Shown here: positions 5,250 to 38,748 of the stretch, in pieces
Layout: each line of letters starts with the position of its first letter
Position numbering within the stretch: position 1 is the stretch's first letter
Virus record (IMG/VR): IMGVR_UViG_2534682158_000014
From: a virus
Lineage: Duplodnaviria; Heunggongvirae; Uroviricota; Caudoviricetes
DNA length: 38,748 bases
Strand: one strand, 5' to 3'
Notes under the pieces: model-generated
Told to the model about the DNA's origin: nothing
Databases searched by the model: none
The model's input: the letters and a program-made list of their open reading frames with translations, nothing else
Made by a program: the position numbers and the translations under genes

Positions 5250-5584
5250 ACAGTTTAACAACACACTACCGTCGCTCGCAACTGATTGCGCTTCCTGTAC
5301 CGGGTGGAAAAGCGAAGGTGGAATATTGCTATGCAGTGAATGTACCAGGTGACAGGGAAATTGTAACCCACAGCTTTGCTGAGTGGGCTGTGGGTGATTT
5401 CAACCGGCAGAAGGAGACAGTCCTTTGCGACAAGTTAACCGCTGGTTCAAAGATCACTACGGAGTGCCCGTCAGAGTCATTCGTTGGGAACCGGAAACAC
5501 AACGGGTTATCTACCTCCGCGAAGGCTATGAGCATGAATGCTTCAGTCCGCTCGAACAGTTTCGTCGTAAATTCAGGGAAATAG
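5246..5584 (+). CDS. Hypothetical protein; the 3' half is probably read in the wrong frame (see findings)
   Basis: ATG overlaps the upstream stop (ATGA coupling). From about 5398 a second frame is open to 5604 and gives a more protein-like translation ('[49 protein letters not shown]'). Confidence 0.3.
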
Positions 5585-5593
5585 AGGTCGGTC

Positions 5594-6535
5594 ATGAGCA
5601 CTAAATTAACCGGCTATGTATGGGATGGTTGCGCTGCGTCAGGCATGAAGTTATCCAGCGTGGCAATTATGGCCCGCCTGGCTGATTTCAGTAATGACGA
5701 AGGTGTGTGCTGGCCATCAATTGAAACCATTGCCCGCCAGATTGGCGCGGGGATGAGTACCGTCAGAACGGCTATCGCACGACTGGAAGCAGAAGGCTGG
5801 TTAACGCGTAAGGCGCGTCGCCAGGGTAACCGCAATGCGTCGAATGTTTATCAGCTTAACGTTGCGAAGCTTCAGGCAGCGGCATTTTCTCAACTGTCAG
5901 ATTCTGACCCGTCAAAATCTGACGCATCAAAATCTGACCCGTCAAAATTTGATGCGTCGAAATCTGGCAAAAAAGCGGGTTTTCACCCGTCAGAATCTGG
6001 CGGGGATCCGTCAGTAAAATCAAAACATGATCCGTCAGATAAAAAACCTTCTCGTCCGGACGCTTCGCAACCGGACACGCAGACGGCTGAACAGAATTTT
6101 TTAACTCGCCATCCTGATGCGGTTGTATTCAGCCCTAAAAAGCGCCAGTGGGGAACGCAGGATGATTTGACCTGCGCACAGTGGCTCTGGAAAAAAATCA
6201 TCGCCCTGTACGAGCAGGCCGCCGAATTTGACGGCGAGGCGGTACGTCCGAAAGAACCGAACTGGACAGCCTGGGCAAATGAAATTCGCCTGATGTGTGT
6301 ACAGGACGGTCGTACCCACAAACAAATCTGCGAGATGTACAACCGTGTCAGCCGCGACCCGTTCTGGTGCCGTAACGTGCTCAGCCCGTCGAAGCTGCGG
6401 GAAAAATGGGATGAACTTTCCCTGCGCTTATCGCCGTCCGTCAGCACGTACACAGAAAAACGCGAAGACCCGTACTTCAAAGCCAGTTACGACAATGTGG
6501 ACTACAGCCAGATCCCGGCAGGATTCAGGGGGTGA
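5594..6535 (+). CDS. Replication initiator (lambda O-like architecture: N-terminal winged-helix, repeat linker, C-terminal domain)
   Basis: N-terminal 'LSSVAIMARLADFSNDEGVCWPSIETIARQIGAGMSTVRTAIARLEAEGWL' is typical of phage replication-initiator HTH domains. Tandem DNA repeats lie inside the gene, encoding 'SDPSKSDASKSDPSKFDASKS'. Confidence 0.7.
   Translation: MSTKLTGYVWDGCAASGMKLSSVAIMARLADFSNDEGVCWPSIETIARQIGAGMSTVRTAIARLEAEGWLTRKARRQGNRNASNVYQLNVAKLQAAAFSQLSDSDPSKSDASKSDPSKFDASKSGKKAGFHPSESGGDPSVKSKHDPSDKKPSRPDASQPDTQTAEQNFLTRHPDAVVFSPKKRQWGTQDDLTCAQWLWKKIIALYEQAAEFDGEAVRPKEPNWTAWANEIRLMCVQDGRTHKQICEMYNRVSRDPFWCRNVLSPSKLREKWDELSLRLSPSVSTYTEKREDPYFKASYDNVDYSQIPAGFRG
5897..6046. repeat. 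Tandem ~15-bp iteron-like repeats inside the initiator gene (candidate ori)
   Basis: 'ccgtcaaaatctgac' / 'gcatcaaaatctgac' / 'ccgtcaaaatttgat' / 'gcgtcgaaatctgg' / 'ccgtcagaatctgg', and further 'ccgtcag...' copies to about 6046. Confidence 0.6.
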
Positions 6536-6537
6536 TC

Positions 6538-7020
6538 ATGAGCCTTTTGAATGACGTTCAGAAATTCATTGAAGCCCATCCGGGGTGTACTTCCGGAGAC
6601 ATTGCGGATGCTTTTGCAGGTTACTCACGGCAGCGAGTTCTGCAGTCAGCAAGCAAGTTACGTCAGAGTGGGCGTGTGGCTCACCGTTGTGAAGAGGATA
6701 CACGCAGACATTTCCCGCGCCAGGCTGAGATATCGCAGGAGCCGGAACCAGTTTGTGAAACCAGACCTGTGCGCAATTTCTATGTCGGCACTAACGACCC
6801 CCGGGTGATTTTGTGCCTGACCCGCCAGGCTGAAGAACTGGAGTCCAGGGGCTTATTCCGTCGAGCTGCAACGGTGTGGATGGAGGCATTCCGTGAAAGC
6901 CACTCCCAGCCAGAACGAAACAATTTTCTGGCGCGTCGTGAGCGGTGCTTACGGAAAAGCAGCAAGCGCGCTGCATCGGGTGAAGAGTGGTATCTGTCAG
7001 GGAATTACGTGGGGGCTTAA
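6538..7020 (+). CDS. Hypothetical protein, 160 aa, Arg-rich C-terminus
   Basis: ATG at 6538 directly after the initiator stop. No domain recognised with confidence. Confidence 0.45.
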   Translation: MSLLNDVQKFIEAHPGCTSGDIADAFAGYSRQRVLQSASKLRQSGRVAHRCEEDTRRHFPRQAEISQEPEPVCETRPVRNFYVGTNDPRVILCLTRQAEELESRGLFRRAATVWMEAFRESHSQPERNNFLARRERCLRKSSKRAASGEEWYLSGNYVGA

Positions 7021-7346
7021 TGACGACGTTAACTCAATGCCAGCAGCAGGTGCTGGATATGCTGATTTCTTACCAGAAAGAACGTGGCTTCCCGCCAACC
7101 AATCAGGAGGTGGCTACCATGCTGGGATACCGTTCAGTGAATGCAGCGGTGGAGCATCTTCGCGCACTGGAGAAAAAAGGCGTCATCACGATAAAGCGTG
7201 GCGTGGCCCGGGGCATCACGCTTCATACCGCGGTGAAGGACGACGATAGCGAGGCGGCCGGGATTATCCGCGCACTGCTTGCTGGTGAGGAAAACGCCAG
7301 GCCGCGTGCAGCCCACTGGTTACATGAGAGGGGGCTGAAAGTATGA
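7020..7346 (+). CDS. Standalone LexA-type N-terminal DNA-binding domain protein, 108 aa
   Basis: 'QQQVLDMLISYQKERGFPPTNQEVATMLGYRSVNAAVEHLRALEKKGVI' resembles the LexA winged-HTH domain. No S24 peptidase domain follows. Confidence 0.55.
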   Translation: MTTLTQCQQQVLDMLISYQKERGFPPTNQEVATMLGYRSVNAAVEHLRALEKKGVITIKRGVARGITLHTAVKDDDSEAAGIIRALLAGEENARPRAAHWLHERGLKV

Positions 7347-7732
7347 AGCTGATTCTGCCTTTTCCACCCAGCGTGAACACCTACTGGCGACACCCCAACA
7401 AAGGGGCATTTGCTGGTAAGAGCCTGATAAGCGCGGCGGGGCGAAAATTCCAGAGTGCGGCGTGCACAGCAATAGTTGAGCAGTTACGTCGTCTGCCGAA
7501 ACCAACGTCGGCACCTGCTTCAGTGGAGATCGTGTTGTTTCCTCCGGATAACCGGATCCGCGATCTGGACAACTATAACAAGGCGCTGTTTGACGCCCTG
7601 ACCCACGCGGGTGTGTGGGAAGACGACAGCCAGGTGAAAAGAATGCTGGTTGAGTGGGGACCGGTTATCCCGAAAGGGAAGGTCGAGATCACTATCAGTA
7701 AGTACGAGAAAACGGCGGGTGCAGCCGCCTGA
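7343..7732 (+). CDS. rusA: RusA Holliday-junction resolvase
   Basis: 'LPFPPSVNTYWRH...' start and the 'RIRDLDNYNKALFDALTHAGVWEDDSQV' acidic catalytic region typical of RusA. Confidence 0.85.
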   Translation: MKLILPFPPSVNTYWRHPNKGAFAGKSLISAAGRKFQSAACTAIVEQLRRLPKPTSAPASVEIVLFPPDNRIRDLDNYNKALFDALTHAGVWEDDSQVKRMLVEWGPVIPKGKVEITISKYEKTAGAAA

Positions 7733-7751
7733 TCAAGAGGAGAAACGAAGT

Positions 7752-8561
7752 ATGAATAATCTGATGGTCATTGATGGTATTGAAGTTCGTCGTGATGCTT
7801 ATGGGCGTTACAGCCTGAACGATCTGCATCGCGCAGCAGTAGCATCTGGTGCAAATGCCAGAACCAAGGAGCCAGGAAAGTTTCTTTCCAGCCAACAAAC
7901 TGTTGAGCTTGTTCATGAATTGATCAACACCCAGAATTTGGGTGTTGACCCGGTGAGTGTGATTCATGGGGGAAATGAACGGGGAACGTATGTCTGTAAG
8001 GAACTGGTGTATGCCTATGCAATGTGGATCAGCCCGTCATTCCATCTGAAGGTGATCCGTACTTTCGACATGGTAACCAGCGCACCGGAAAAATTATCCG
8101 GACAGGCTGCTGACAAGATGCAGGCTGGAGTGATTCTGCTGGACTTTATGCGTCGGGAGTTAAACCTGTCTAACTCATCTGTGCTTGGAGCCTGTCAGAA
8201 ACTCCAGGAGGCTGTTGGCTTACCGAATCTGGCACCGCGCTATGCCATTGATGCTCCTGCTGATGCACACGATGGCTCAAGTCGCCCCACGCTGTCGCTG
8301 AGTGCACTGCTGAAGCAGTATGGTATCCGCCTGACGGCTAATCAGGCATATCACCAGATGGTGAAGCTGGGGATCGTTGAACAACGCGAACGATACAGCC
8401 GTACCGCGATTAACAACATCAAAAAATTCTGGTCGCTGACAGCGAAAGGCTGCATGTTCGGCAAGAACATCACCAGTCCCGCAAATCCGCGCGAGACGCA
8501 GCCGCATTTCTTCGAATCCCGATTCCCTGAGCTGTTAAAGCTGCTCGATACCGTTCATTGA
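7752..8561 (+). CDS. KilA-N domain protein
   Basis: N-terminal 'MVIDGIEVRRDAYGRYSLNDLHRAAVASG' is KilA-N/APSES-type. Start at the internal ATG preceded by 'AGAGGAG'. Confidence 0.65.
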   Translation: MNNLMVIDGIEVRRDAYGRYSLNDLHRAAVASGANARTKEPGKFLSSQQTVELVHELINTQNLGVDPVSVIHGGNERGTYVCKELVYAYAMWISPSFHLKVIRTFDMVTSAPEKLSGQAADKMQAGVILLDFMRRELNLSNSSVLGACQKLQEAVGLPNLAPRYAIDAPADAHDGSSRPTLSLSALLKQYGIRLTANQAYHQMVKLGIVEQRERYSRTAINNIKKFWSLTAKGCMFGKNITSPANPRETQPHFFESRFPELLKLLDTVH

Positions 8562-8562
8562 G

Positions 8563-9558
8563 GTGACCGTGAGAGCACTACTGACCCCTGAAATTGCCCC
8601 GCGTATGGGGATCGTATTGTTCAGACCAGGTTCAGAGCTGATGCCCCTGTTTATGCAGGGGCGTGTCCTGCTGGAGCCTGAGCCGGAACGTTATTCATCT
8701 TTCGCCAGTGGTGCCGTTCCGGCAGCATCACAACCGCTGGCGGATGATCCTGCCGTTCGGGCCGTGTTCCGCAATGAGGCAGTGATCCGTCGTGCTGGTG
8801 GAGTGGAATGTCTTGAAAGCTGGTTACTTCGTGAAAAAGGCTGCCAGTGGCCTCATTCCGACTGGCACAGCGAGAACATGACCACAATGCGACACGCGCC
8901 GGGCGCAATCCGTCTGTGCTGGCACTGCGATAACCAGCTGCGCGATCAGTTCACGGAACGGCTGGAATCAATGGCAACGGATAACTGTGCTCGCTGGGTG
9001 TTGTCTGTCGTGCGTCGGGATCTCGGTTTTGATGATAGTCACGTTGTGACAATGCCGGAACTGTGCTGGTGGCTGGTTCGTAATGACCTGGCGGATGCCT
9101 TACCGGAAAGTGCAGCCCGTAAGGCTCTGAGATTACCGAAGCCTGTTGTGCCGTCTGTCACCCGGGAAAGTGACCTTGTGCCTTTGGTTCCTGCCACCAG
9201 CATCATCCAGGATAAAGCGAAAAAGGTGCTGGCGCTGAAAGTGGATCCGGAGTCGCCGGAGTCTTTTATGTTACGCCCGAAACGTCGCCGCTGGGTTAAT
9301 GAAAAGTACACGCGCTGGGTTAAGACGCAGCCGTGCGCATGTTGTGGAAAGCCTGCTGATGATCCCCACCACCTGATAGGCCACGGTCAGGGTGGAATGG
9401 GTACAAAAGCGCATGACCTCTTTGTGTTGCCTTTGTGCAGAAAGCATCACGACGAGCTGCATGCGGATACCGTGGCATTTGAAGAGAAGTATGGCTCCCA
9501 GCTGGAGCTGATATTTCGTTTTATCGATCGTGCGCTGGCAATTGGCGTACTGGCCTGA
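8563..9558 (+). CDS. DUF968-family protein (nin-region type, Cys/His-rich C-terminus)
   Basis: C-terminal 'CACCGKPADDPHHLIGHGQGGMGTKAHDLFVLPLCRKHHDELH'. GTG start is uncertain. Confidence 0.55.
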   Translation: MTVRALLTPEIAPRMGIVLFRPGSELMPLFMQGRVLLEPEPERYSSFASGAVPAASQPLADDPAVRAVFRNEAVIRRAGGVECLESWLLREKGCQWPHSDWHSENMTTMRHAPGAIRLCWHCDNQLRDQFTERLESMATDNCARWVLSVVRRDLGFDDSHVVTMPELCWWLVRNDLADALPESAARKALRLPKPVVPSVTRESDLVPLVPATSIIQDKAKKVLALKVDPESPESFMLRPKRRRWVNEKYTRWVKTQPCACCGKPADDPHHLIGHGQGGMGTKAHDLFVLPLCRKHHDELHADTVAFEEKYGSQLELIFRFIDRALAIGVLA

Positions 9559-9575
9559 TTTTGTGGAGAAAGGTG

Positions 9576-9941
9576 ATGCGTGATATTCAGATGATACTTG
9601 AACGTTGGGGAGCATGGGCTGCGAGTGATAACTCTGGTGTTGATTATTCACCTATAGCTGCTGGGTTTAAGGGACTTCTTCCCTATACCAGCAAGAAACG
9701 CTTGGCTTGTTCGGATAGTGATGCATTAATTATTGAAGGTTGTCTTGCTCGTCTAAAGCAAAAAAGACCTTATGAGCATTCGCTTCTTGTGGCACATTAT
9801 TTATACAGAATATCCAAGCGTAAGATTGCAAAGGCGCGTGGAAAGGATGAGAAATTGATACGTATAGAAATACAGCTAGCCGAAGGATTTATTGATGGCT
9901 GCCTTTCCATGCTAGATCTAACATTAGATTTGGACGTTTAA
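9576..9941 (+). CDS. Late-gene antiterminator Q-like protein
   Basis: Size, position immediately upstream of the late promoter/terminator and lysis genes, and sequence flavour of small Q-family proteins. ATG at 9576 is preceded by 'GGAGAAAGG'. Confidence 0.6.
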   Translation: MRDIQMILERWGAWAASDNSGVDYSPIAAGFKGLLPYTSKKRLACSDSDALIIEGCLARLKQKRPYEHSLLVAHYLYRISKRKIAKARGKDEKLIRIEIQLAEGFIDGCLSMLDLTLDLDV

Positions 9942-9944
9942 TAA

Positions 9945-9969
9945 AATACGCCCCATGCAGGGGCGTATT
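9945..9969. terminator. Bidirectional intrinsic terminator between Q (+) and the KAP NTPase gene (-)
   Basis: Perfect 10-bp stem 'aatacgcccc-atgca-ggggcgtatt', with A/T runs on both sides. Confidence 0.65.
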
Positions 9970-9971
9970 AT

Positions 9972-11303
9972 TTACTGAATGAATGACATTTGATTGATAT
10001 ATTTTATCAATAACTCTCTGGGTGTAGTACTACAAAAATTTAGGTGGTCATAATCAGTATAAACATTTGTGAATTTTTTAAGTTCTTCATCACTTTTAGG
10101 GGCAAATCGCGCATTAAGAGTAATGCTGTCTTTAATTATTCCGAAGAATACAATAGATATTTCAGGAATTTGCGTTCTTCTCTCATAAGAATAAGGTATT
10201 TCTTTTATGTTAAGCAGGTCTGCTAAATGAGATATAGATTCAGCGGTAATTTCTTGTTTTATTTTTTTCTTGTCACCAAAGCAATGTATGAAGACAGCTA
10301 CGACAAAGATCCTATTTATTAAAGGAGCACTGCTTTTGTACTCCTCGTCGTTTAACAGTTGAAAAATGTTAAGATTGCGTGAAAAAGTTTGTGTTTCACG
10401 TAAGGATAAGTTGGTTCGTTGAATTAAATCACGGATAAATCTACCAGATAAACTATTAATTTCATTTAGTGATTTTGTCTTGTCTACAAGGTAATTCCAA
10501 TATATAACAGATGTTTTACATACGACGTGACCTTTTATTAAACATGTGTCTGGAAGCGTGATGGTATATTTAATAAACTTGTCAAGATACTTTTGTGAGT
10601 TAATACTATAACCATAAATATGATTTATCGATGCTTTTAATTGTTCTGTGTTTGTAACTAAAATAAAAAAGACATTATTGATGTCAAAAATGTGTTTTAT
10701 TGTTTCAATGACATTTGTTGAAAAACTCGGCTTACATCGGTCTAATTCATCAATTATAATTACTATCTTTTGGTTTTCTGAAATACTTTCGATGCAAGAT
10801 TTAAGTGAATTTATGTTTTTCTCTGATTCCATATGGTCTTCAAGCAAATTTTCAATAGTCCCATCTATTGCTGCATTGCTTGCTTTCTTCATAGCATCTT
10901 GGAATTCTTCGGCAACTTCACTAGCCTCCTGTCGTAAAAACCAACCTGCACCAGCTTTTAGTACCGTTTTTAAACCAAATCGAATTGCAGGAAGGGATCT
11001 CTTAATGAAGTGTTGTTTTTCTTCCTCAGGCAAAATGCTAGCAATTGCAGAGGTTATGAGAAGTAATGGAGATTCTGCATGATCCCCTTTAAAGGCATCA
11101 ATATAAACAACTTTAGATTCGGTTTCTTGCTCAATAATGAGATTTTTCAGTTTGATACTAAATTCTGTTTTCCCTGTTCCCCATGCGCCGTCTATTACCA
11201 GTGGTGAAATGTCTGCCTCTGGTTTTAGCAACTTGATGATATTTTCAGCGATGTTTCTTCGTTGGAACTCGTCACGTTCAGTGAAAGATAGTGTATCTAA
11301 CAT
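9972..11303 (-). CDS. KAP-family P-loop NTPase, 443 aa, AT-rich accessory gene
   Basis: Walker A 'VIDGAWGTGKTEF' and Walker B 'IVIIIDELDRC'. Strongly AT-rich and oriented against the flanking late genes. Confidence 0.8.
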   Translation of the reverse strand: MLDTLSFTERDEFQRRNIAENIIKLLKPEADISPLVIDGAWGTGKTEFSIKLKNLIIEQETESKVVYIDAFKGDHAESPLLLITSAIASILPEEEKQHFIKRSLPAIRFGLKTVLKAGAGWFLRQEASEVAEEFQDAMKKASNAAIDGTIENLLEDHMESEKNINSLKSCIESISENQKIVIIIDELDRCKPSFSTNVIETIKHIFDINNVFFILVTNTEQLKASINHIYGYSINSQKYLDKFIKYTITLPDTCLIKGHVVCKTSVIYWNYLVDKTKSLNEINSLSGRFIRDLIQRTNLSLRETQTFSRNLNIFQLLNDEEYKSSAPLINRIFVVAVFIHCFGDKKKIKQEITAESISHLADLLNIKEIPYSYERRTQIPEISIVFFGIIKDSITLNARFAPKSDEELKKFTNVYTDYDHLNFCSTTPRELLIKYINQMSFIQ

Positions 11304-11428
11304 AATATAAACCTGTTAACTCCTACAGTAAAAAACGAATAATACGACTTTGGGATTAAAAATCATTAACGCGGTCCGCAAAAATTCTTGTAATCTGTTA
11401 AGAGTGGTTACTTCGCCACACAGCTTAA

Positions 11429-11456
11429 ACCCGCCGTCGAGCGGGTTTTGTCGTTT
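11429..11456 (+). terminator. tR'-like terminator of the late leader transcript (putative pR' just upstream)
   Basis: 'acccgc-cgtcga-gcgggt' followed by 'tttgtcgttt', about 150 nt upstream of the holin gene. Confidence 0.55.
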
Positions 11457-11600
11457 CTGTGGCTGGGGATTCGTTGGGCCTGGCCTATCCCGCAGTTATC
11501 CTTTGACTCGGCTTCTTTGACGTTTCCGCTTCTGATTTGCGGAACATGATGTTTCCTCAATTTGCACCTGCTGTATCAGCGAGGTGAGAGATAACTACAA

Positions 11601-11936
11601 ATGCCTCATAACCCAAATACCTGGCCGGACTGGCTGGAGTTGTTTCAGAGCTGGTGGCGTGGAGACACACCGCTGGGCGCAGTGATTATGTCGATCGTTA
11701 TGGCTGGCTTGCGCATTGCCTATTTTGGCGGTGGTGGTGGCTGGAAGCGAAAAACGCTCGAGATTTTGCTCTGTGGTGCTCTGACGCTGACATTTGCATC
11801 CGCTCTTGAGTATGTCGGATGGCCTAAATCACTTTCTGTTGCCATTGGTGGTGGTGTTGGGCTGATCGGTGTCGATGCTATTCGTGGGGCAGCAATGCGA
11901 GTAATCGGTAACAAATTTGGTAGCTCGAAGGAGTAA
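11601..11936 (+). CDS. Putative holin (three predicted TM segments)
   Basis: Three hydrophobic stretches and a charged C-terminus. Immediately precedes the endolysin. Confidence 0.6.
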   Translation: MPHNPNTWPDWLELFQSWWRGDTPLGAVIMSIVMAGLRIAYFGGGGGWKRKTLEILLCGALTLTFASALEYVGWPKSLSVAIGGGVGLIGVDAIRGAAMRVIGNKFGSSKE

Positions 11937-11939
11937 TTT

Positions 11940-12416
11940 ATGCAGGCACTAAATTCCCAGCGTAAAGCTTTCCTTGATATGGTGGCATGGTCAGAGGGAA
12001 CGGATAACGGGCGACAACCGACACATAACCACGGTTATGACGTTATTGTTGGTGGTGAACTATTCACTGATTACTCCGATCACCCTCGCAAACTTGTCAC
12101 GCTAAATCCGAAACTCAAGTCAACAGCTGCAGGCCGTTATCAACTTCTTTCCCGTTGGTGGGATGCCTACCGCAAGCAGCTTGGCCTGAAAGACTTCTCT
12201 CCCAAAAGCCAGGATGCTGTGGCATTGCAGCAGATTAAAGAGCGTGGCGCTTTACCGATGATTGATCGCGGTGATATCCGTCAGGCTATCGATCGTTGCA
12301 GCAATATCTGGGCGTCGTTACCTGGTGCAGGTTACGGTCAGTATGAACATAAAATCAGTGACCTGATTTCCCGGTTTAAAGAGGCAGGTGGGGTGGTAAA
12401 TGAAGTTGAGCTATAA
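11940..12416 (+). CDS. R: Endolysin, lambda R-type lytic transglycosylase
   Basis: 'NSQRKAFLDMVAWSEGTDNGRQPTHNHGYDVIVGGELFTDYSDHPRKLVTLNPKLKSTAAGRYQLLSRWWDAYRKQLGL' closely matches my recollection of lambda R. Confidence 0.9.
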   Translation: MQALNSQRKAFLDMVAWSEGTDNGRQPTHNHGYDVIVGGELFTDYSDHPRKLVTLNPKLKSTAAGRYQLLSRWWDAYRKQLGLKDFSPKSQDAVALQQIKERGALPMIDRGDIRQAIDRCSNIWASLPGAGYGQYEHKISDLISRFKEAGGVVNEVEL

Positions 12417-12961: not shown

Positions 12962-13522
12962 TTAAAGTACCCACCAGCGGATCGATTCCGTGGGTATGGT
13001 TGCAGCCTCGACTTGATGAACAATTCCCAACTCGGAGGCCCTTCCGGGATGAAGGATGGTTGCCGAAGTGATCAAATCCTTCCAATCAGCAATCTCACTT
13101 GGATTTTTCTTTTTTGTTTCAATATCCATGATTTGAATAAATCGATTTAGATCGTCATCGAGGCATGAAGCCCATTCTCTCAATCGTAGGTGATCTTCGC
13201 TGGGTGCGGCGAACCCCCAATGCAGTGGGTGAAGAAGGAAGCGAGAAAGTGGGTTGGCAGTTCGCACTTCTCCAGCCATATAGATCACGTTTGCGATTGA
13301 TTCAACATTACTGAGGTTATGCGTAGTAACCTTTACACCAAGTGACTTTAAAAAATTGTAAGCAGTAAAGCCTGAAACTGTATCTCCACCTTTGCTGGAA
13401 ATATAGAGCTTAATTTCTGTTGCTGGTTGATTAGTATTTGAAACTGCTTTTAAGCAGACATCCATCAGATTAGTTACAGAGGCAACTGTAACATCTGTCA
13501 AAAAATGTACCGTATGGATCAT
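12962..13522 (-). CDS. ClpP-fold (S14-like) serine peptidase homologue, 186 aa
   Basis: 'EIKLYISSKGGDTVSGFTAYNFLKSLGVKV...SNVESIANVIYMAGE...FLLHPLHWGF' aligns by eye to ClpP '[23 protein letters not shown]...GQAASMGAFLLTAG...MIHQPLGGY', with candidate Ser and His retained. Preceded by 'GAGGAG' on the minus strand. Confidence 0.55.
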   Translation of the reverse strand: MIHTVHFLTDVTVASVTNLMDVCLKAVSNTNQPATEIKLYISSKGGDTVSGFTAYNFLKSLGVKVTTHNLSNVESIANVIYMAGEVRTANPLSRFLLHPLHWGFAAPSEDHLRLREWASCLDDDLNRFIQIMDIETKKKNPSEIADWKDLITSATILHPGRASELGIVHQVEAATIPTESIRWWVL

Positions 13523-13600
13523 TTTTACTCCTCAATGGCAGGTCGCTAATGCAACAGGAAATGCAAATAATCGAATGTTATTAGAGCATCAAAGTAGAGC

Positions 13601-14149
13601 CTAGCTCTGTGGCGTGCTTAAGCATTTTGCTTCGTAATGTACCCTCATGGAAAACATAGCGAATAACATAATGAGCTTATCGCGTAAGCTTGTAGAGGAT
13701 CCCGTGAAACTTACAACCCTAGTTTCTGCTCCGTAAACCCCAAGCTTAAAATCTCTAATGGGGGTCAAGCTATCAGGGTAACCGTGCTCCATTAGACTTG
13801 TTAAGGAGTCAATCTCACTGTTAGTGATGTCAGAGTTGTTAATTTGATGTGAACGTTTGTTTCTGAAGTTGTTGAACCTTCGAATAAATTTGTTTAGCTC
13901 TGAGCTCATCCCATAGTTCATCGCAAGCTGAGCTTTAATGGCAAAATCCATGTTGATATTTTCGCCAAAACCGCTGAAGAAATCCCTGTTACCAGAGGCA
14001 CAGATAATCCAAGCTTCCAAGATTTGTTCAATCAAAAGGTGAGTGCGGAGATAGATACCAATGTCATCTTGGGACCGAACTATAGTCATTATTCTATCGG
14101 GTTGATGGGATGCTAAAGTCAACTCTTCAAAATGAGTAAAATCAAACAT
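13601..14149 (-). CDS. Hypothetical protein, 182 aa, with an R-x4-H motif (possible HEPN-like); first gene of the two-gene cassette
   Basis: 'FRNKRSHQ' fits R-x4-H. AT-rich. 'AAGGA' Shine-Dalgarno. No other recognisable domain. Confidence 0.5.
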   Translation of the reverse strand: MFDFTHFEELTLASHQPDRIMTIVRSQDDIGIYLRTHLLIEQILEAWIICASGNRDFFSGFGENINMDFAIKAQLAMNYGMSSELNKFIRRFNNFRNKRSHQINNSDITNSEIDSLTSLMEHGYPDSLTPIRDFKLGVYGAETRVVSFTGSSTSLRDKLIMLFAMFSMRVHYEAKCLSTPQS

Positions 14150-34002: not shown

Positions 34003-34030
34003 GCGGGTGCTTAGCACCCGCTTATTTAAT
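34003..34030. terminator. Hairpin terminator between the tfa (+) and gtrC-like (-) genes
   Basis: 'gcgggtgc-tta-gcacccgc' followed by 'ttatttaatt'. Confidence 0.55.
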
Positions 34031-35496
34031 TAATTGCAGTTGAATGTAATGTTTTTATCGTAAACAAAAATCTTCTTATCTCCGACGTCAATAACCTTTG
34101 ATGGATTACCAATCTCTTTAATTGTTATATTTCTCATAACCTCGTCATCTGTAATTATGAAATTTCCTCCGCGCTCATACCAATAGTTTTTTGACAACCA
34201 TTTATTGCATGCAAGTATATTCAAACCTCGGTTTACATCAATCGGAGCAATTGATATGTCTCCATCTATACTTGCTGATGAAGCAAACCAGAAAGATGCA
34301 TACCCGTTTGTGAGGTTATTCTGCCTTACAGTGTGTTTTATCTGATTTATAATATCATTAGAATTGTCTTTTTTTTCATGCATATAAATAGAACAAAAGA
34401 GAATAAATGTTGTAACAACCCCTAATGCGATGAATTTCCACCCTCTGGAGTTGTTAGATCTGCCAATAACAACAGGTGCTAGTATAAAAAATGGAACGAT
34501 ATATCTTATAGTCCATTCATCTATTGGACGGTTACTTGCAAGGTATGCTGGTATCATTATAATACAAGCTATACATATAGCCATATTGATCATGGAGGTT
34601 TTGAATATTTCCTTTACTGACATTGCAACTAATATAAGAAGTAAAATCATTACAACAAAACAAAAAACAGAAATAAGCGCTGTAATATCAGAAGGTGGCT
34701 TGCCAAAGAAGAAAGCTCCACTGTATAGGAGGAATCCTTTTACGAATAAGTATAAATTATTCAGGATATCATCAAATGCAACAAATGTTGGATCTGGAAC
34801 GCCTGGCAAAATGTACCAGTTATGAGCTCTTGCGTACATGGTCATAATTTTTGATGCAACATATGCAAATATAGTTGCAACTAGTATGATCAGATTTTTT
34901 TGGCTTTTGGTTTTTACTATAAAAATCACTGATGATATTGCTACTGGTGCAATAATGAGTAGCTTTATGATGTCATCACTGAAACAAGCTAGAGCTAACA
35001 CTAAAATATAAAGAGATAGAGAAATTAACGATCTTGTTTTGGAAAAATTGTCTAACATTATGAAGCAAAACAACATGGATACATATGTGCCGACATGTAT
35101 CACAGGTATTAATACGTTTAATACTGCAAACCCAGAAGGCAGCGCAACGCAAAATGAAATGGCCCATAACGATGAAAGCCTTTCTTTTGAAAGATAAAAT
35201 GTCATCAATGTAACCATTGAATACATAATTGCCGGTATGCAGTATGCTTGGTACTGTCCGTACCAGAATACCTTTGAAGCAAGCCCGTACCATATTATGT
35301 CTGTAAAATAGAATGATACTGTAGAGAGATACCATCCACTAAGCGTCCAATTTCCGTCCGCAATGTCCTTACCCTCAAGAAGTCCAGAAACAGCATCCGA
35401 ACTTGGCAAAATCTGTTTTGAAATCGAGGCGTAGAAGAAAGTCAAGAATATAAATCCAATGATGTATATGGCTGTTTTTTTTATATTTAAAGTCAT
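34030..35496 (-). CDS. GtrC-type serotype-specific O-antigen glucosyltransferase (polytopic membrane protein)
   Basis: 488 aa, multiple TM segments, AT-rich, last gene of a gtrA–gtrB–gtrC arrangement. Confidence 0.6.
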   Translation of the reverse strand: MTLNIKKTAIYIIGFIFLTFFYASISKQILPSSDAVSGLLEGKDIADGNWTLSGWYLSTVSFYFTDIIWYGLASKVFWYGQYQAYCIPAIMYSMVTLMTFYLSKERLSSLWAISFCVALPSGFAVLNVLIPVIHVGTYVSMLFCFIMLDNFSKTRSLISLSLYILVLALACFSDDIIKLLIIAPVAISSVIFIVKTKSQKNLIILVATIFAYVASKIMTMYARAHNWYILPGVPDPTFVAFDDILNNLYLFVKGFLLYSGAFFFGKPPSDITALISVFCFVVMILLLILVAMSVKEIFKTSMINMAICIACIIMIPAYLASNRPIDEWTIRYIVPFFILAPVVIGRSNNSRGWKFIALGVVTTFILFCSIYMHEKKDNSNDIINQIKHTVRQNNLTNGYASFWFASSASIDGDISIAPIDVNRGLNILACNKWLSKNYWYERGGNFIITDDEVMRNITIKEIGNPSKVIDVGDKKIFVYDKNITFNCN

Positions 35497-35497
35497 T

Positions 35498-36412
35498 TTA
35501 CTTATCCTTTAGAATGTATCTTGGTCGCTGCTTAACTTCAACATAAATTCTTCCTATATACTCTCCAAGAACTCCTATGCCTATTAACTGAACTCCACCA
35601 AGAAACAATATTGATACAATGATAGAAGGGTAACCTGGAACACTATTTCCAAACATCAATTTATCAGCAATCATCCATGCTCCATAAAGGAATGATAAGG
35701 TTGCCACAAACAGGCCTATATAAGTCCACATGCGCAAAGGGAAAGTAGAAAAGCTAGTGATCCCTTCCAGCGCCAAGTTCCATAGCTTCCATCCATTGAA
35801 CTTTGTGCTTCCTGCAACTCGTTCTGCTCGCGCATATTCTACGACATCGGTTCGACCACCAACCCAGCTCAGCACACCCTTCATAAACAGGTTTCGTTCT
35901 GGCATGAGCTTAATGTTTTCTACTACTTCGCGAGACATGAGCCGGAAGTCGCCAACATTTTCTTCTATCTTAGGGTTGCTGATTTTGTTATGAAGCTTAT
36001 AGAACCACTCAGCAGATTTACGCTTCAGCCTGCTGTCAGTGGAGCGGTCAGAGCGTTTAGCCAGAACCATATCTGCACCGGCCTGCCATTTCTCTATCAA
36101 GTGAGGAATAACTTCGATAGGGTCTTGCAGATCAACGTCAATCGGGATAATTGCCTCCCCGGTAGCATGGTCCAGACCTGCGAACAGGGCGGGTTCTTTG
36201 CCGAAGTTACGTGTGAACGACAGCGAAACAACAAGCGGGTCGGCAACAGCAAGCTCGTTGATAATTGATTCTGTAGCGTCTTTGCTGCCATCGTTTATGA
36301 AGACTATCTCGACTTCATGCTGCTGAAGCCCTTCAAATTCGCGCACAGTTTTATAAAAAATAGGTATCGTGGCCTCTTCGTTAAAGACCGGAACGACTAA
36401 AGAAATTTTCAT
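35498..36412 (-). CDS. gtrB: GtrB bactoprenol glucosyltransferase (GT2 family)
   Basis: '[13 protein letters not shown]...IFINDGSKD' GT2 N-terminus, 'IDVDLQD' DxD region and two C-terminal TM helices. Confidence 0.9.
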
Positions 36413-36771
36413 TTCGCATCCCTAAAGACAATGAACTTTGAATAGACGAAACCGCACACCAGGCTGATGGCGGAGAAGGTGACAAGAGTTATCATCGGGG
36501 GAAGTGCGCATCTATCAGCAGCCCATCCAACAGTAGCACTGAGTGTTCCCATGAACCCGACATATAACATGTAGCGCATCGTTGTAGTTGATGCTTTGAA
36601 TGTGAATTTTGCATTCGCGAAGAAGCTAAAACTCACAGCCACAACGAAACCTGCGAAGTTTGCCAGAGCCTGATTGGTATGCGCGGCATAGATACATACA
36701 CCAAAAACCACCCAGTGTATAAGTGTGTTCAGCACACCAATCGAGGTGTACCTTGCAAATATATTTAACAT
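36409..36771 (-). CDS. gtrA: GtrA flippase (small four-TM protein)
   Basis: 120 aa hydrophobic protein immediately upstream of, and overlapping, gtrB. Confidence 0.8.
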
Positions 36772-37219: not shown

Positions 37220-37696
37220 TTAACTAAACATCGCAGTAATCGAGGCGCTTGCCAGAGAATGGAAATGGACGTTAAACCCGACCATCGCGCCGCTGGCACC
37301 TTCATCGACATCAATACGTTCTACATCCAGCGCGTGAACGGTAAAAATGTAGCGATGGGTTTCGCCTTTCGGCGGCGCTGCACCATCGTACCCGGTTTTA
37401 CCAAAGTCGGTACGCGTCTGCAAAACGCCGTCTGGCATTGCTACCAGACCAGAGCCAAACCCTTGCGGTAATACGCGGGTATCAGCGGGTAAATTAACAA
37501 CTACCCAGTGCCACCAGCCGGAGCCGGTTGGCGCATCCGGGTCGTAGCAGGTGACAACAAAACTTTTCGTTCCCGCAGGAACATCATCCCACGCCAGATG
37601 CGGTGAAACATTATCGCCATCGTAACCCATGCCGTTAAAGACATGACGATGTGGCAACTTATCGCCATCGCGCAGATCATTACTGATGAGTTTCAT
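37220..37696 (-). CDS. ybhB: YbhB (PEBP/Raf-kinase-inhibitor-like family protein), host gene
   Basis: 'MKLISNDLRDGDKLPHRHVFNGMGYDGDN...YDPDAPTGSGWWHWVV' matches E. coli YbhB as I recall it. Confidence 0.9.
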   Translation of the reverse strand: MKLISNDLRDGDKLPHRHVFNGMGYDGDNVSPHLAWDDVPAGTKSFVVTCYDPDAPTGSGWWHWVVVNLPADTRVLPQGFGSGLVAMPDGVLQTRTDFGKTGYDGAAPPKGETHRYIFTVHALDVERIDVDEGASGAMVGFNVHFHSLASASITAMFS

Positions 37697-37754
37697 GAAC
37701 CCTCCTTTCTAGTTTGCAGAAAGTGTAGCCAGAAACCCTCACGCTGACTTCCCG

Positions 37755-38748
37755 TTATTGGCAAAAAAATGTTTCATCCTGCACCGCACGATTAACCGCT
37801 GCGGTCAGACGCTGCAACTGTTGCGGGAGAATAATATAGGGCGGCATCAGGTAAATCAGTTTGCCAAAAGGCCGGATCCAGACACCCTGTTCGACAAAGA
37901 ATTTTTGCAGCGCTGCCATATTCACCGGACGAGTGGTTTCGACCACGCCAATGGCCCCTAGCACGCGCACATCGGCAACCATTTTGGCATCACGGGCTGG
38001 TGCCAGTTGCTCGCGCAGTTGTACTTCAATAGCCACCACCTGCTGCTGCCAGTCGCCAGATTCGAGAATCGCCAGGCTGGCGTTTGCTGCCGCGCAGGCT
38101 AGCGGATTGCCCATAAAAGTTGGCCCATGCATAAAGCAACCGGCTTCGCCGTTACTGATGGTTTCCGCAACCTCGCGCGTGGTGAGTGTGGCGGAAAGGG
38201 TCATTGTACCGCCGGTTAAGGCTTTACCGAGGCACAAAATGTCCGGCGCGATATCTGCATGTTCACAGGCAAACAGTTTGCCAGTACGACCAAATCCGGT
38301 GGCGATCTCGTCGGCAATCAGCAAGATACCTTCGCGATCGCACATTTTGCGGATTCGTTTTAACCATTCCGGATGGTAGATGCGCATCCCGCCTGCGCCC
38401 TGGACAATCGGTTCAATGATCACCGCCGCGATTTCATGACGATGCGCCGCCATCAGGCGGGCAAAGCCCACCATATCGCGCTCATCCCATTCACCATCCA
38501 TGCGGCTTTGCGGGGCGGGAGCAAACAAGTTTTCTGGCAGATAGCCTTTCCACAGACTGTGCATTGAGTTATCCGGATCGCACACCGACATCGCGCCAAA
38601 GGTATCGCCATGATAACCATTGCGGAAGGTCAGAAAACGCTGGCGCGCTTCGCCTTTGGCTTGCCAGTACTGCAACGCCATTTTCATCGCCACTTCCACC
38701 GCTACGGAACCGGAGTCCGCGAGAAAAACGCATTCCAGCGGTTGCGGC
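37755..38748 (-). CDS. bioA: BioA adenosylmethionine-8-amino-7-oxononanoate aminotransferase, 5' end outside the window
   Basis: Class-III PLP aminotransferase sequence ending '...[13 protein letters not shown]'. Located beside ybhB as in E. coli. Confidence 0.95.

Follow-up and report, generated by a model that had tools for sequence, protein, structure and literature searches.

The founding member of the KAP family is PifA of the F plasmid, a much longer, membrane-associated protein that excludes phage T7 and whose exclusion is triggered by T7 gp1.2 or gp10. Single-gene KAP NTPases protect E. faecalis, for which both the Walker B motif and the C-terminal region are required (PMC13552941). 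The validated KAP defences include EF_KAP and three metagenomic KAP proteins (PMC13552941, PLoS Biol 2026), and the sole KAP defence tested for abortive infection was not abortive (PMC13552941). A single-gene ATPase/KAP system recovered from P4 hotspots, named 'Reve', protects E. coli (PMC13586616, NAR 2026), and Tmn is a transmembrane NTPase of the YobI family (PMC13001434). PDC-S20 is one of the 145 PDC families, the predicted candidates of the guilt-by-embedding set of Payne et al., built from genes that lie within BREX, DISARM and type I RM loci (10.1101/2024.01.29.577857). PDC-S20 was nowhere mentioned in the publications retrieved by our literature search, which likewise returned no mention of the Q-to-late-promoter and cI-int prophage slots, and Vassallo et al. 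2022 mention neither KAP nor NTPase.

In the window, as we call the whole stretch of 38,748 nucleotides that was analysed, a KAP-family P-loop NTPase gene was located at positions 9972..11303 of the minus strand, with an ATG start and a product of 443 aa (WP_000887615.1). A previous sequence-only reading of this stretch had assigned the product to the KAP family on account of the motifs GAWGTGKT and IIIDELDRC, and the assignment was upheld: the protein matched PF07693 (KAP_NTPase) at 2.7e-70, with 237.4 bits against a Pfam gathering cutoff of 20, aa 15-317 aligning to profile positions 1-292 of 293. Read from the translation, Walker A is VIDGAWGTGKTEF (aa 39-46; codons at 11166..11189, minus strand) and Walker B is KIVIIIDELDRCKPS (aa 182-190; codons at 10734..10760, minus strand), and the two agree with the patterns GxxxxGK[ST] and hhhhDE, respectively. 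Across 33 homologs, G39, W41, G42, T43, G44 and K45 of Walker A were invariant and T46 nearly so, and D185, E186, L187, D188, R189 and C190 of Walker B were all invariant. The KAP gene was confirmed as a real, intact gene of an E. coli prophage.

When the window protein was compared with the described systems, PifA resembled it in being a single protein encoded by a mobile element, but the PADLOC profile of PifA aligned with the NTPase part only (aa 7-252 to positions 13-255 of 720, 4.5e-18), and no F-type pifA locus was present among the plasmid tblastn matches listed (E <= 1e-6). EF_KAP and Reve, like the window protein, combine a KAP NTPase with an undefined C-terminal region and are encoded by single genes borne on mobile elements. 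In EF_KAP there are two transmembrane helices and a C-terminal region of 322 aa, whereas the window protein has no such helices and extends for ~125 residues past the Pfam KAP domain; Tmn, too, differs in being transmembrane. RdrA, of ~800 aa, acts together with the adenosine deaminase RdrB, whereas the window protein has 443 aa, and no deaminase or other partner was found among the neighbours of its gene in the window. QatA is, like the window protein, a defence-associated P-loop NTPase, and its profiles aligned to aa 124-285; however, QatA needs QatBCD, the score of the window protein for the equivalog model NF041923 (35.1 bits) fell far short of the cutoff (600), and the KAP gene has Q and a holin as neighbours.

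The closest correspondence was with PDC-S20/PHROG 8614, of which the window protein is a member: the profile match covers the full length, the gene stands alone, the length class is the same, and no structural difference was found, the family itself being a prediction. The PADLOC PDC-S20 model PDLC04956 matched at 1.1e-175 (protein aa 3-442 of 443, profile positions 4-449 of 450), three more PDC-S20 models matched at 4.5e-52 to 2.4e-29, and PHROG 8614, a family of unknown function, matched at 4e-187. A lone KAP NTPase had been thought unusual in the sequence-only reading, a view contradicted by the more than 2,000 clusters of the same architecture in Enterobacterales (length class 440-447 aa), by the PADLOC single-gene candidate and by the validated single-gene KAP proteins (PMC13552941, PMC13586616). 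The KAP gene is a good candidate from an already catalogued family of single-gene defence candidates, not a new kind of system, and for the annotation of the window the result is an ordinary one: a prophage cargo slot is occupied by a candidate defence gene that had already been catalogued.

All of the family contexts examined (8/8) were prophage cargo slots. Five were Q slots, those of the window, Salmonella, Citrobacter, Cronobacter and Atlantibacter, and three, from two E. coli clusters and a Yersinia cluster, were cI-int slots of prophages of the 186/P2-like type, in which the relatives were co-oriented with cI and int and began 11-31 nt past the preceding gene; a 186-type allele (P0112) is 44% identical to that of the window. 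The cI-int region of a P2-related phage is a defence hotspot in Vibrionaceae (Rousset et al.). Phage backbone aside, no neighbour of the KAP gene was conserved across the eight contexts, which represent two prophage types. The cluster nearest to the KAP protein is widespread in Salmonella, where the gene is 91% identical and sits in an apparent prophage remnant found in at least 1,000 contigs; that locus also has an oafA-like acyltransferase and an LRR/NEL effector (virulence effector). In E. coli the gene was carried by 50 of 5,426 genomes and was full length in every one of them (50/50). The prophage of the matching strain is broken by IS fragments. The prophage of the window also has a gtr O-antigen cassette. 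No close homolog was found in the isolated phages of INPHARED, where the best match was a Salmonella genome record and the others aligned in the NTPase region alone, at 26-31% identity.

The KAP gene lies antisense between Q and a lambda-type holin gene and runs against both the early-right and the late transcription units. The antiterminator Q gene (9561..9941, plus strand; PF06530 Phage_antitermQ, 2.6e-51; PGAP 'antiterminator Q family protein') is the left anchor of the slot, and the holin, the first late gene, is the right neighbour (11601..11936, plus strand; PF05106, 2.6e-27). A conserved phage-backbone block, the putative late promoter/Q-utilisation region, occupies 11358..11449 of the plus strand. 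In PhiR49_2, in the Stx2a phage Stx2_14040 and in loci of Serratia, Rahnella and Rouxiella, which lack the cassette, the Q stop directly abuts this block; the empty site of the related phages proves that the 1.4-kb segment is an insertion. The cassette (9942..11357) consists of a hairpin, the KAP gene and a private upstream region (11304..11357, minus strand) that was nearly identical in the aligned Salmonella cassette and partly kept in that of Citrobacter. The GC content of 10001-11000 was 0.316-0.318, against 0.54-0.57 upstream and 0.48-0.50 downstream. Both the AT-richness (GC ~0.32 vs ~0.55) and the antisense position between Q and the late promoter/terminator had been described from the letters, and they were borne out by these values and by the empty-site phages. 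The interval given at that time, 9945-11460, also took in the block 11358-11449, which is phage backbone and not cargo.

These data showed a foreign AT-rich cassette, with a putative terminator hairpin of its own, inserted between the Q stop and the putative late-promoter block. The features on its two sides adjoin each other in related phages, and its composition is deviant; we read the KAP gene as a moron, a self-contained cargo cassette of the prophage. Hendrix-type morons are likewise autonomous, placed between otherwise adjacent genes, deviant in composition and provided with their own terminator, and are found in the Q-to-lysis interval.

The hairpin (9945..9969) has a perfect 10-bp stem and a 5-nt loop, AATACGCCCC-ATGCA-GGGGCGTATT, and is flanked by the Q stop (9939-9941) and the KAP ORF stop (9972-9974); Q and the KAP gene converge on it, and it is a putative terminator for both directions. 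On its own it folded with a dG of -16.5 kcal/mol; ~50-nt windows spanning it reached -18.3 kcal/mol (z = -4.2 for the plus strand and -5.0 for the minus strand), and none of 200 shuffles folded as well. The strict terminator scan did not list this hairpin, because the T-run has 4, not 5, T in 8 bases. The perfect stem at the 3' end of the KAP gene, also remarked on in the sequence-only reading, has counterparts at the equivalent place in the Citrobacter and Cronobacter cassettes, with changed stem sequences. In the slot survey, most other occupied sites had a GC-rich hairpin no more than ~25 nt away from the Q stop, and none was found between Q and the block at the five empty sites carrying the block. 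No convincing sigma-70 -35/-10 pair for the KAP gene emerged from a consensus scan or from three-way alignments, the weak consensus matches overlapping the start codon or falling within the ORF. DNA of 32% GC is often silenced in E. coli; for these two reasons, expression of the KAP gene in the lysogen is no more than putative.

The survey of the slot for unrelated cargo, which the sequence-only reading had proposed, revealed 10 cassette types at the Q-to-block junction, all of them antisense (10/10), as well as phages in which the site was empty. Two Yersinia loci with 4-kb 'gaps' (L022 and L023) were left out, as their block match was of 27 nt and the intervening genes were metabolic-looking. 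The other cargos include PDC-S42, an SRA/methyl-directed-REase-like protein and an NYN-domain protein, and the GC content of their cassettes was 0.32-0.45 versus 0.42-0.58 in the flanks, a difference lacking in L039 alone. The Q-to-promoter slot in this Q family is therefore a real hotspot of antisense cassettes. It had also been called a classic lambdoid cargo site, which needs amending: the slot of this Q family is indeed a hotspot, but the classic site, that of stx and tRNAs, is downstream of the late promoter. The stx and tRNA cargo of two surveyed loci (L001 and L069) was in sense orientation downstream of the late promoter block, and in Stx2_14040 the block is upstream of the tRNAs and stx2A. 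Such cargo is Q-dependent, whereas the KAP cassette, being upstream of the block and antisense, should not depend on Q. Within the block, GCGGTCCGC and GTTAAGAGTGGTTACTTCGCC were invariant, and a terminator hairpin (11427-11448), a terminator-like site in the scan, closes it; from its position, the block is probably PR'/tR'. It had no Rfam match to a known RNA at E <= 1 and no matching sequence string in the StxS paper.

The C-terminal half of the KAP protein (aa 264-443; 9975..10514, minus strand) was characterized by identity, dN/dS, predicted structure and cluster search. The sequence-only reading had called for a search for an effector domain in the C-terminal ~250 aa; the profile and structure searches instead assigned the residues up to ~317 to the NTPase and its lid, with a lid helix bearing LSLRE..R (aa 299-309), and the rest to an all-helical, family-private domain. 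No enzymatic effector domain was found in the KAP protein by profile, structure and cluster searches. The C-terminal half was predicted to be helical with pLDDT mostly of 80-94, and it had matches in only 9 representative clusters out of 1.84 billion, all at the same position. Identity to the query was 28% in aa 261-443 versus 61% in aa 1-260. The homolog comparisons showed a protein under purifying selection, with dN/dS of 0.18-0.24 over the whole length; the N-terminal half (1-260) gave 0.07-0.17 and aa 261-443 gave 0.26-0.43. The C-terminal half may be the target sensor. The predicted fold is AAA+/STAND-like and nearest to RADAR RdrA, a ring-forming ATPase, at a sequence identity of 12-16%; RdrA and BrxC were the closest defence proteins by structure. 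The insert between Walker A and Walker B is amphipathic and was modelled with low confidence. Many prokaryotic KAP proteins, though not all, have transmembrane helices inserted in the NTPase domain. A transmembrane KAP was ruled out here by hydropathy, since no 19-residue window exceeded a Kyte-Doolittle value of 1.6, the maximum (1.60) falling at aa 325-343, on a helix (H327-342) that was modelled with confidence.

The KAP gene is best explained as a lysogen-expressed, single-protein anti-phage defence or superinfection-exclusion factor, to which we assign a probability of about 0.55. The full-length PDC-S20 match and the occurrence of relatives in cargo slots together with other defence-like genes favour the defence reading; a location in a cargo slot is also compatible with other lysogenic-conversion functions. 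The gene would be expressed in the lysogen independently of Q, which we infer with support from the 186/P2-like relatives, whose place is in the lysogenic operon of cI and int. A protein of the infecting phage would be recognised by the variable C-terminal domain, and this recognition would shift the NTPase to an oligomeric, NTP-hydrolysing state. Since a separate effector is lacking, it would be the assembled NTPase that blocks the infection, by sequestering or remodelling the phage target or by consuming NTP, an executing step that is conjecture, as neither an effector domain nor a partner was found. On sequence, the outcome for infected cells could be either survival (exclusion) or death (abortive infection). 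Of the single-gene abortive-infection or exclusion factor suggested earlier, defence or exclusion is the part best supported, by PDC-S20 and the cargo slots, and abortive infection the part that found no support, the tested KAP defence not being abortive (PMC13552941).

A role in lysogenic conversion or host physiology, for instance as an NTPase scaffold affecting host signalling, stress tolerance or virulence that rides the cargo slot as gtr, bor/lom, porin and effector genes do, appears unlikely. Lambdoid cargo slots do hold non-defence genes, as the gtr cassette of this prophage and the acyltransferase and effector genes beside the 91%-identical Salmonella gene illustrate, but the protein matches over its full length a family defined by embedding in BREX, DISARM and RM loci, in structure it comes closest, among defence proteins, to RdrA and BrxC, it has diverged chiefly in the C-terminal domain, as expected of a protein in an arms race, and other defence-like genes share the slot; moreover, related single-gene KAP proteins are antiviral (PMC13552941). 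Of the characterised proteins, the nearest relatives are QatA and RdrA, which act with QatBCD and RdrB, respectively, and the KAP protein might correspondingly be half of a multi-component system, with its partner in the host chromosome or in a second AT-rich antisense pair, ClpP-like, lying 1.7 kb off at 12962-14149. The lack of an effector domain of its own fits this possibility, which we nevertheless regard as distinctly unlikely: the ClpP-like pair is replaced by other genes in prophages sharing the KAP gene, the Citrobacter, Cronobacter, Salmonella and 186-like contexts have only phage backbone in common, and the QatA equivalog score was far below its cutoff (35 bits vs 600). A conserved partner encoded by the host may nevertheless exist.

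Service to the phage itself is very unlikely, whether as a convergent-transcription roadblock that damps leaky Q and stabilises lysogeny or as an NTPase acting on the late functions of the phage. The slot holds unrelated proteins or none, so the phage cycle does not require any one of them; in unrelated phages of the 186/P2-like type, members of the KAP protein's family lie in the cI-int operon in sense orientation, and a purely transcriptional effect would leave the strong purifying selection on the protein unexplained. The roadblock does gain from all 10 slot cassette types being antisense and convergent on Q, by which orientation itself seems selected, and from the constitutive activity of the late promoter of lambdoid phages, which depends on the level of Q (PMC7547250). 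That the gene is a decaying, non-functional passenger is extremely improbable, since its frame is intact in 50/50 genomes, dN/dS is ~0.2, the catalytic motifs are invariant across genera and the gene is kept in the apparent Salmonella remnant (at least 1,000 contigs), even though IS fragments interrupt the prophage of the matching strain and the gene is rare in E. coli (50/5,426 genomes).

A bolder form of the defence reading is tentative and, on balance, rather doubtful. Here the soluble KAP NTPase would be a minimal sensor and effector in one: its fast-evolving helical C-terminal domain would recognise a phage protein, and the AAA+/STAND-like ring formed thereupon would be the weapon, trapping or remodelling the target or burning NTP, with no nuclease, membrane pore, deaminase or partner; the Q-to-late-promoter junction would be an undescribed defence hotspot, whose cassettes would be silenced by convergent early transcription during induction of their own prophage, thereby conferring self-immunity. 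Such a sensor-effector mode would set it apart from PifA and Tmn, both tied to the membrane, from QatA with its partners and from RdrA with its deaminase. If the KAP gene does defend, PDC-S20 would thereby have its first tested member; this is a family common in Enterobacterales prophages, including the island widespread in Salmonella. The product of the KAP gene would then be an unusually small KAP/AAA+ defence protein with neither partner nor effector and, for these very features, well suited to studying the way in which such NTPases halt phages. The interval from the Q stop to the block in this Q type holds at least 10 antisense cassettes, which are mostly unannotated and could be mined for further defence genes.

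The gene lies antisense at 9972-11303 on the minus strand, begins with ATG and encodes 443 aa, the translation including VIDGAWGTGKTEF and KIVIIIDELDRCKPS; PGAP already names its product 'KAP family NTPase' (WP_000887615.1). The antiterminator gene Q (PF06530, 2.6e-51) flanks it on one side and a lambda-type holin gene (PF05106) on the other. Its GC content was 0.316-0.318 over 10001-11000, against 0.54-0.57 in the 2 kb before and about 0.5 downstream. Between the stop codons of the plus-strand gene upstream (9939-9941) and of the ORF (9972-9974) stands a hairpin with a perfect 10-bp stem, AATACGCCCC-ATGCA-GGGGCGTATT (9945-9969). In isolation it had a dG of -16.5 kcal/mol, and windows of about 50 nt around it reached -18.3 kcal/mol on either strand (z = -4.2 and -5.0), with none of 200 shuffles as stable; a strict terminator scan did not list it, because its T-run is one T too short. 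The sequence-only reading had described the ORF, its motifs, AT-richness, antisense orientation, 10-bp hairpin and place beside Q, all of them correctly.

Comparison with PhiR49_2 and a Stx2a-converting phage exposed the boundaries of the insert. In both, the stop codon of a related Q abuts a conserved block of about 92 bp (...GCGGTCCGCAAA...GTTAAGAGTGGTTACTTCGCCACACAGCTT, then the hairpin AAACCCGCC...GCGGGTTTT), which in the Stx2a phage is followed downstream by a methylase gene, three tRNAs and stx2A. The window copy of this block lies at 11358-11449, beyond the KAP gene, indicating that a cargo spanning about 9942-11357 was inserted between Q and the block. We infer that the block comprises a Q-responsive late promoter and first terminator, judging by where it lies, by its conservation together with Q and by the model of lambda and Stx phages, whose PR' is found just past Q and undergoes constitutive termination (PMC7547250). 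Promoter hexamers were not obvious in it, and an Rfam search of the block matched no family. By analogy with lambda 6S RNA or StxS, it would yield a terminated transcript of about 45-50 nt. The palindrome GCGGTCCGC (11372-11380), a candidate Q-binding or promoter element, was unchanged in six loci (L001, L002, L062, L069, L073 and L077) and one base different in the Atlantibacter locus L007, and its neighbouring bases varied among the aligned loci.

The interval between Q and the block was surveyed in 53 loci with relatives of the window Q, one genome per species, in which the block was then located. The gap was about zero in PhiR49_2, the Stx2a phage and the Serratia, Rahnella and Rouxiella loci; in the other loci 0.5-1.8 kb intervened, mostly AT-rich and with genes on the opposite strand. 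Ten cassette types were counted, all of them antisense: the KAP type (Atlantibacter homolog, 43% identity), DUF6731 with a small membrane protein (in phage cdtI and in Citrobacter braakii), two types in which a small membrane protein accompanies a protein of ~330-370 aa, a PADLOC PDC-S42 protein, a 147-aa protein with an SRA domain, similar to the C-terminal part of type II methyl-directed restriction enzymes, an NYN-domain protein and three single genes without annotation. The nine types other than that of the window came from other genera, in loci L002, L004, L005, L009, L012, L017, L024, L026, L037, L039 and L040; most carry no annotation, and they are possible untapped defence genes. At most occupied sites a GC-rich hairpin stood no more than about 25 nt from the Q stop, and the five block-bearing empty sites had none between Q and the block; the KAP cassettes of Citrobacter and Cronobacter retained the hairpin in place but with other stem sequences. 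These cassettes are classic morons. The label of a classic cargo site held only in part: the known cargo (tRNAs, stx) is sense and downstream of the block, and the cassettes counted here are antisense and upstream of it. Four records, labelled Bacillus MAG (L004), Actinomycetes MAG (L012), Chryseobacterium (L014) and Martelella (L046), had a Q 51-94% identical to the enterobacterial Q of the window and are probably contaminated or mis-binned assemblies. A DUF968/HNHc_6 (YdfU-family) gene (8563-9558) directly precedes Q in the window, as in the annotated loci examined from E. coli, the Stx2a phage, PhiR49_2, Citrobacter, Cronobacter and Salmonella, the two genes being a conserved pair.

Members of the KAP gene's family occupied prophage cargo slots in all eight contexts examined, that of the window included, and no neighbour was common to the eight. 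The Salmonella copy (91% identity) reproduces the same Q-hairpin-KAP-block-holin module near base-for-base, at 5375-11428 of Salmonella Typhimurium contig AAYVPS010000009.1, a region resembling a remnant prophage; at least 1,000 Salmonella contigs carried a member of its cluster. The surrounding island also encodes a 788-aa effector of the LRR/NEL type and an oafA-like acyltransferase and is apparently SPI-12, which has been described with oafA and sspH2 (PMC5626846). Homologs from Citrobacter (65%), Cronobacter (45%) and Atlantibacter (43%) had the same antisense position in lambdoid prophages with differing lysis cassettes. Two E. coli clusters and one from Yersinia lay instead between cI and int of 186/P2-like prophages, co-oriented with these two genes and 11-31 nt past the preceding one. 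In phage 186 the lysogenic transcript comes from the cI-int operon. P2-related Vibrio phages have been described as having an equivalent hotspot of defence genes between cI and int (PMC9122126).

Pfam KAP_NTPase matched aa 15-317 end to end (2.7e-70) and the PADLOC profile PDC-S20 the whole length (1.1e-175), while PifA (4.5e-18) and QatA (4e-12) profiles matched the NTPase part only; the NCBIfam QatA equivalog was rejected at 35 bits (cutoff 600). In PHROGs the family is phrog_8614, 'unknown function'. PDC families were defined by 'guilt-by-embedding', in a screen that looked for genes lying inside BREX, DISARM and type I RM loci, and were declared untested by their authors (10.1101/2024.01.29.577857); none of the papers searched named PDC-S20. 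By profile match, the gene belongs to a catalogued single-gene family of defence-candidate KAP NTPases, in a described position, and the view that a lone KAP NTPase is unusual was mistaken. At a threshold of E <= 1e-5 the family numbered 2,267 clusters in Escherichia, Salmonella, Citrobacter, Klebsiella, Enterobacter, Cronobacter, Kosakonia, Yersinia, Serratia, Rahnella and others, with few exceptions 440-447 aa long. Public databases already contain the identical protein, in a 90% cluster of 2,139 members, mostly from Salmonella enterica. The gene is rare in E. coli (50 of 5,426 complete genomes, full length in all 50); INPHARED isolated phages held no close homolog, and plasmids a single copy with 49% identity.

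An alignment of 33 members separated two regions. The N-terminal ~260 residues were highly conserved (RDE 10-12, GxWGTGKTEF, YIDAF..DH, DELDRCxP, KH, N218/Q221, YLDKF), and the C-terminal part was conserved only at LSLRE (299-303) and R309, candidate sensor-2 or arginine-finger residues on a predicted lid helix; identity to the query averaged 61% over aa 1-260 and 28% over aa 261-443. The dN/dS values of four E. coli alleles were 0.18-0.24 overall, 0.07-0.17 in the N-terminal and 0.26-0.43 in the C-terminal half, indicating that the gene is under purifying selection and that the pressure on its C-terminal domain is relaxed or diversifying. These values contradict decay of the gene, which is accordingly very improbable. 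Many KAP proteins have a transmembrane segment, whereas none was detected here (19-residue hydropathy peak 1.60). The AlphaFold2 model (pLDDT 80.6, pTM 0.77) had an alpha/beta NTPase core, a low-confidence insert (113-154) and an all-helical C-terminal part; a Foldseek search accorded with this structural reading, and the viral structure library contributed nothing more. With aa 264-443 alone as the query, a complete HMMER scan across 1.84 billion representative proteins returned nine clusters, all of the same family and position or its fragments, indicating a family-private, fast-evolving domain; profile and structure searches for an effector domain there matched no known effector.

We consider the KAP protein to be a single-protein, prophage-encoded defence or exclusion factor with a probability of roughly 0.55. 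Several observations point this way: it belongs to a defence-candidate family, occurs only in cargo slots shared with defence-like genes, is either insulated from lytic transcription or part of a lysogenic operon, joins a conserved NTPase to a rapidly changing domain, and has defence ATPases as its nearest structural kin. The functional guess of the sequence-only reading is a reasonable hypothesis. There are recent precedents: single-gene KAP NTPases protect E. faecalis without being abortive, requiring Walker B and the C-terminal region (PMC13552941), and 'Reve', a single-gene ATPase/KAP system of P4 hotspots, protects E. coli (PMC13586616). A conversion function other than defence is a doubtful alternative, and dependence on a hidden host-encoded partner a slightly weaker one. 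That the gene serves to regulate its own prophage is unlikely, because unrelated cargos fill the slot, some sites are empty and the family also occurs in a different phage type.

For a defence factor, the C-terminal domain may recognise a phage protein, NTP-dependent oligomerisation could follow, and the assembly itself might act, either on the target or on the pool of NTP, no effector having been found in the protein. A consensus scan and alignments of the upstream region identified no promoter for the gene. Since all cassettes between Q and the block are strictly antisense, convergent early transcription through Q at induction might switch them off, sparing the phage's own lytic cycle. Mildly new are the hotspot of antisense cassettes between Q and the late promoter, the restriction of the KAP family to two prophage slots in the contexts examined, and a soluble architecture without partner or effector.

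Region 9400-12000 showed 100% identity to a chromosomal prophage present in E. coli M7424, M00057, M11957 and CNREC_004-43, which adjoins ybhC. With a lambdoid early region, P27-type terminase, HK97-type head, contractile Mu-like tail and gtr cassette, it resembles the SfII/SfIV/SfV phage group. IS fragments break its left arm in M7424, and IS30, IS3 and ISEc31 transposase gene fragments occur at 7393-10963 of that locus (L003) and at 3-362 of the window; these interruptions suggest a possibly defective prophage. A second AT-rich antisense cargo (12962-14149, minus strand), between the lysis and HNH/terminase genes, encodes a 186-aa ClpP-like protease (PF00574, 2e-12; phrog_94) and a 182-aa protein (phrog_5483) without Pfam or PADLOC match. 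The pair was rejected as a KAP companion, being replaced by other genes in prophages that retain the KAP gene; related prophages carry in its slot a 184-aa hypothetical protein, DUF6979 plus KilA-N, or DUF6236. In phi80-like phages, Tai defence systems are reported to lie upstream of the packaging module (PMC11364771). The right end of the prophage holds the AT-rich O-antigen-modification gtr cassette (34030-36771, minus strand), which encodes a 488-aa type-specific protein, GtrB (PF00535) and GtrA (PF04138), and is followed by the host ybhB-like (PF01161) and bioA-like (PF00202) genes (37220-38699). Such an arrangement is usual where SfV/SfII-type prophages occupy the lambda attachment region.
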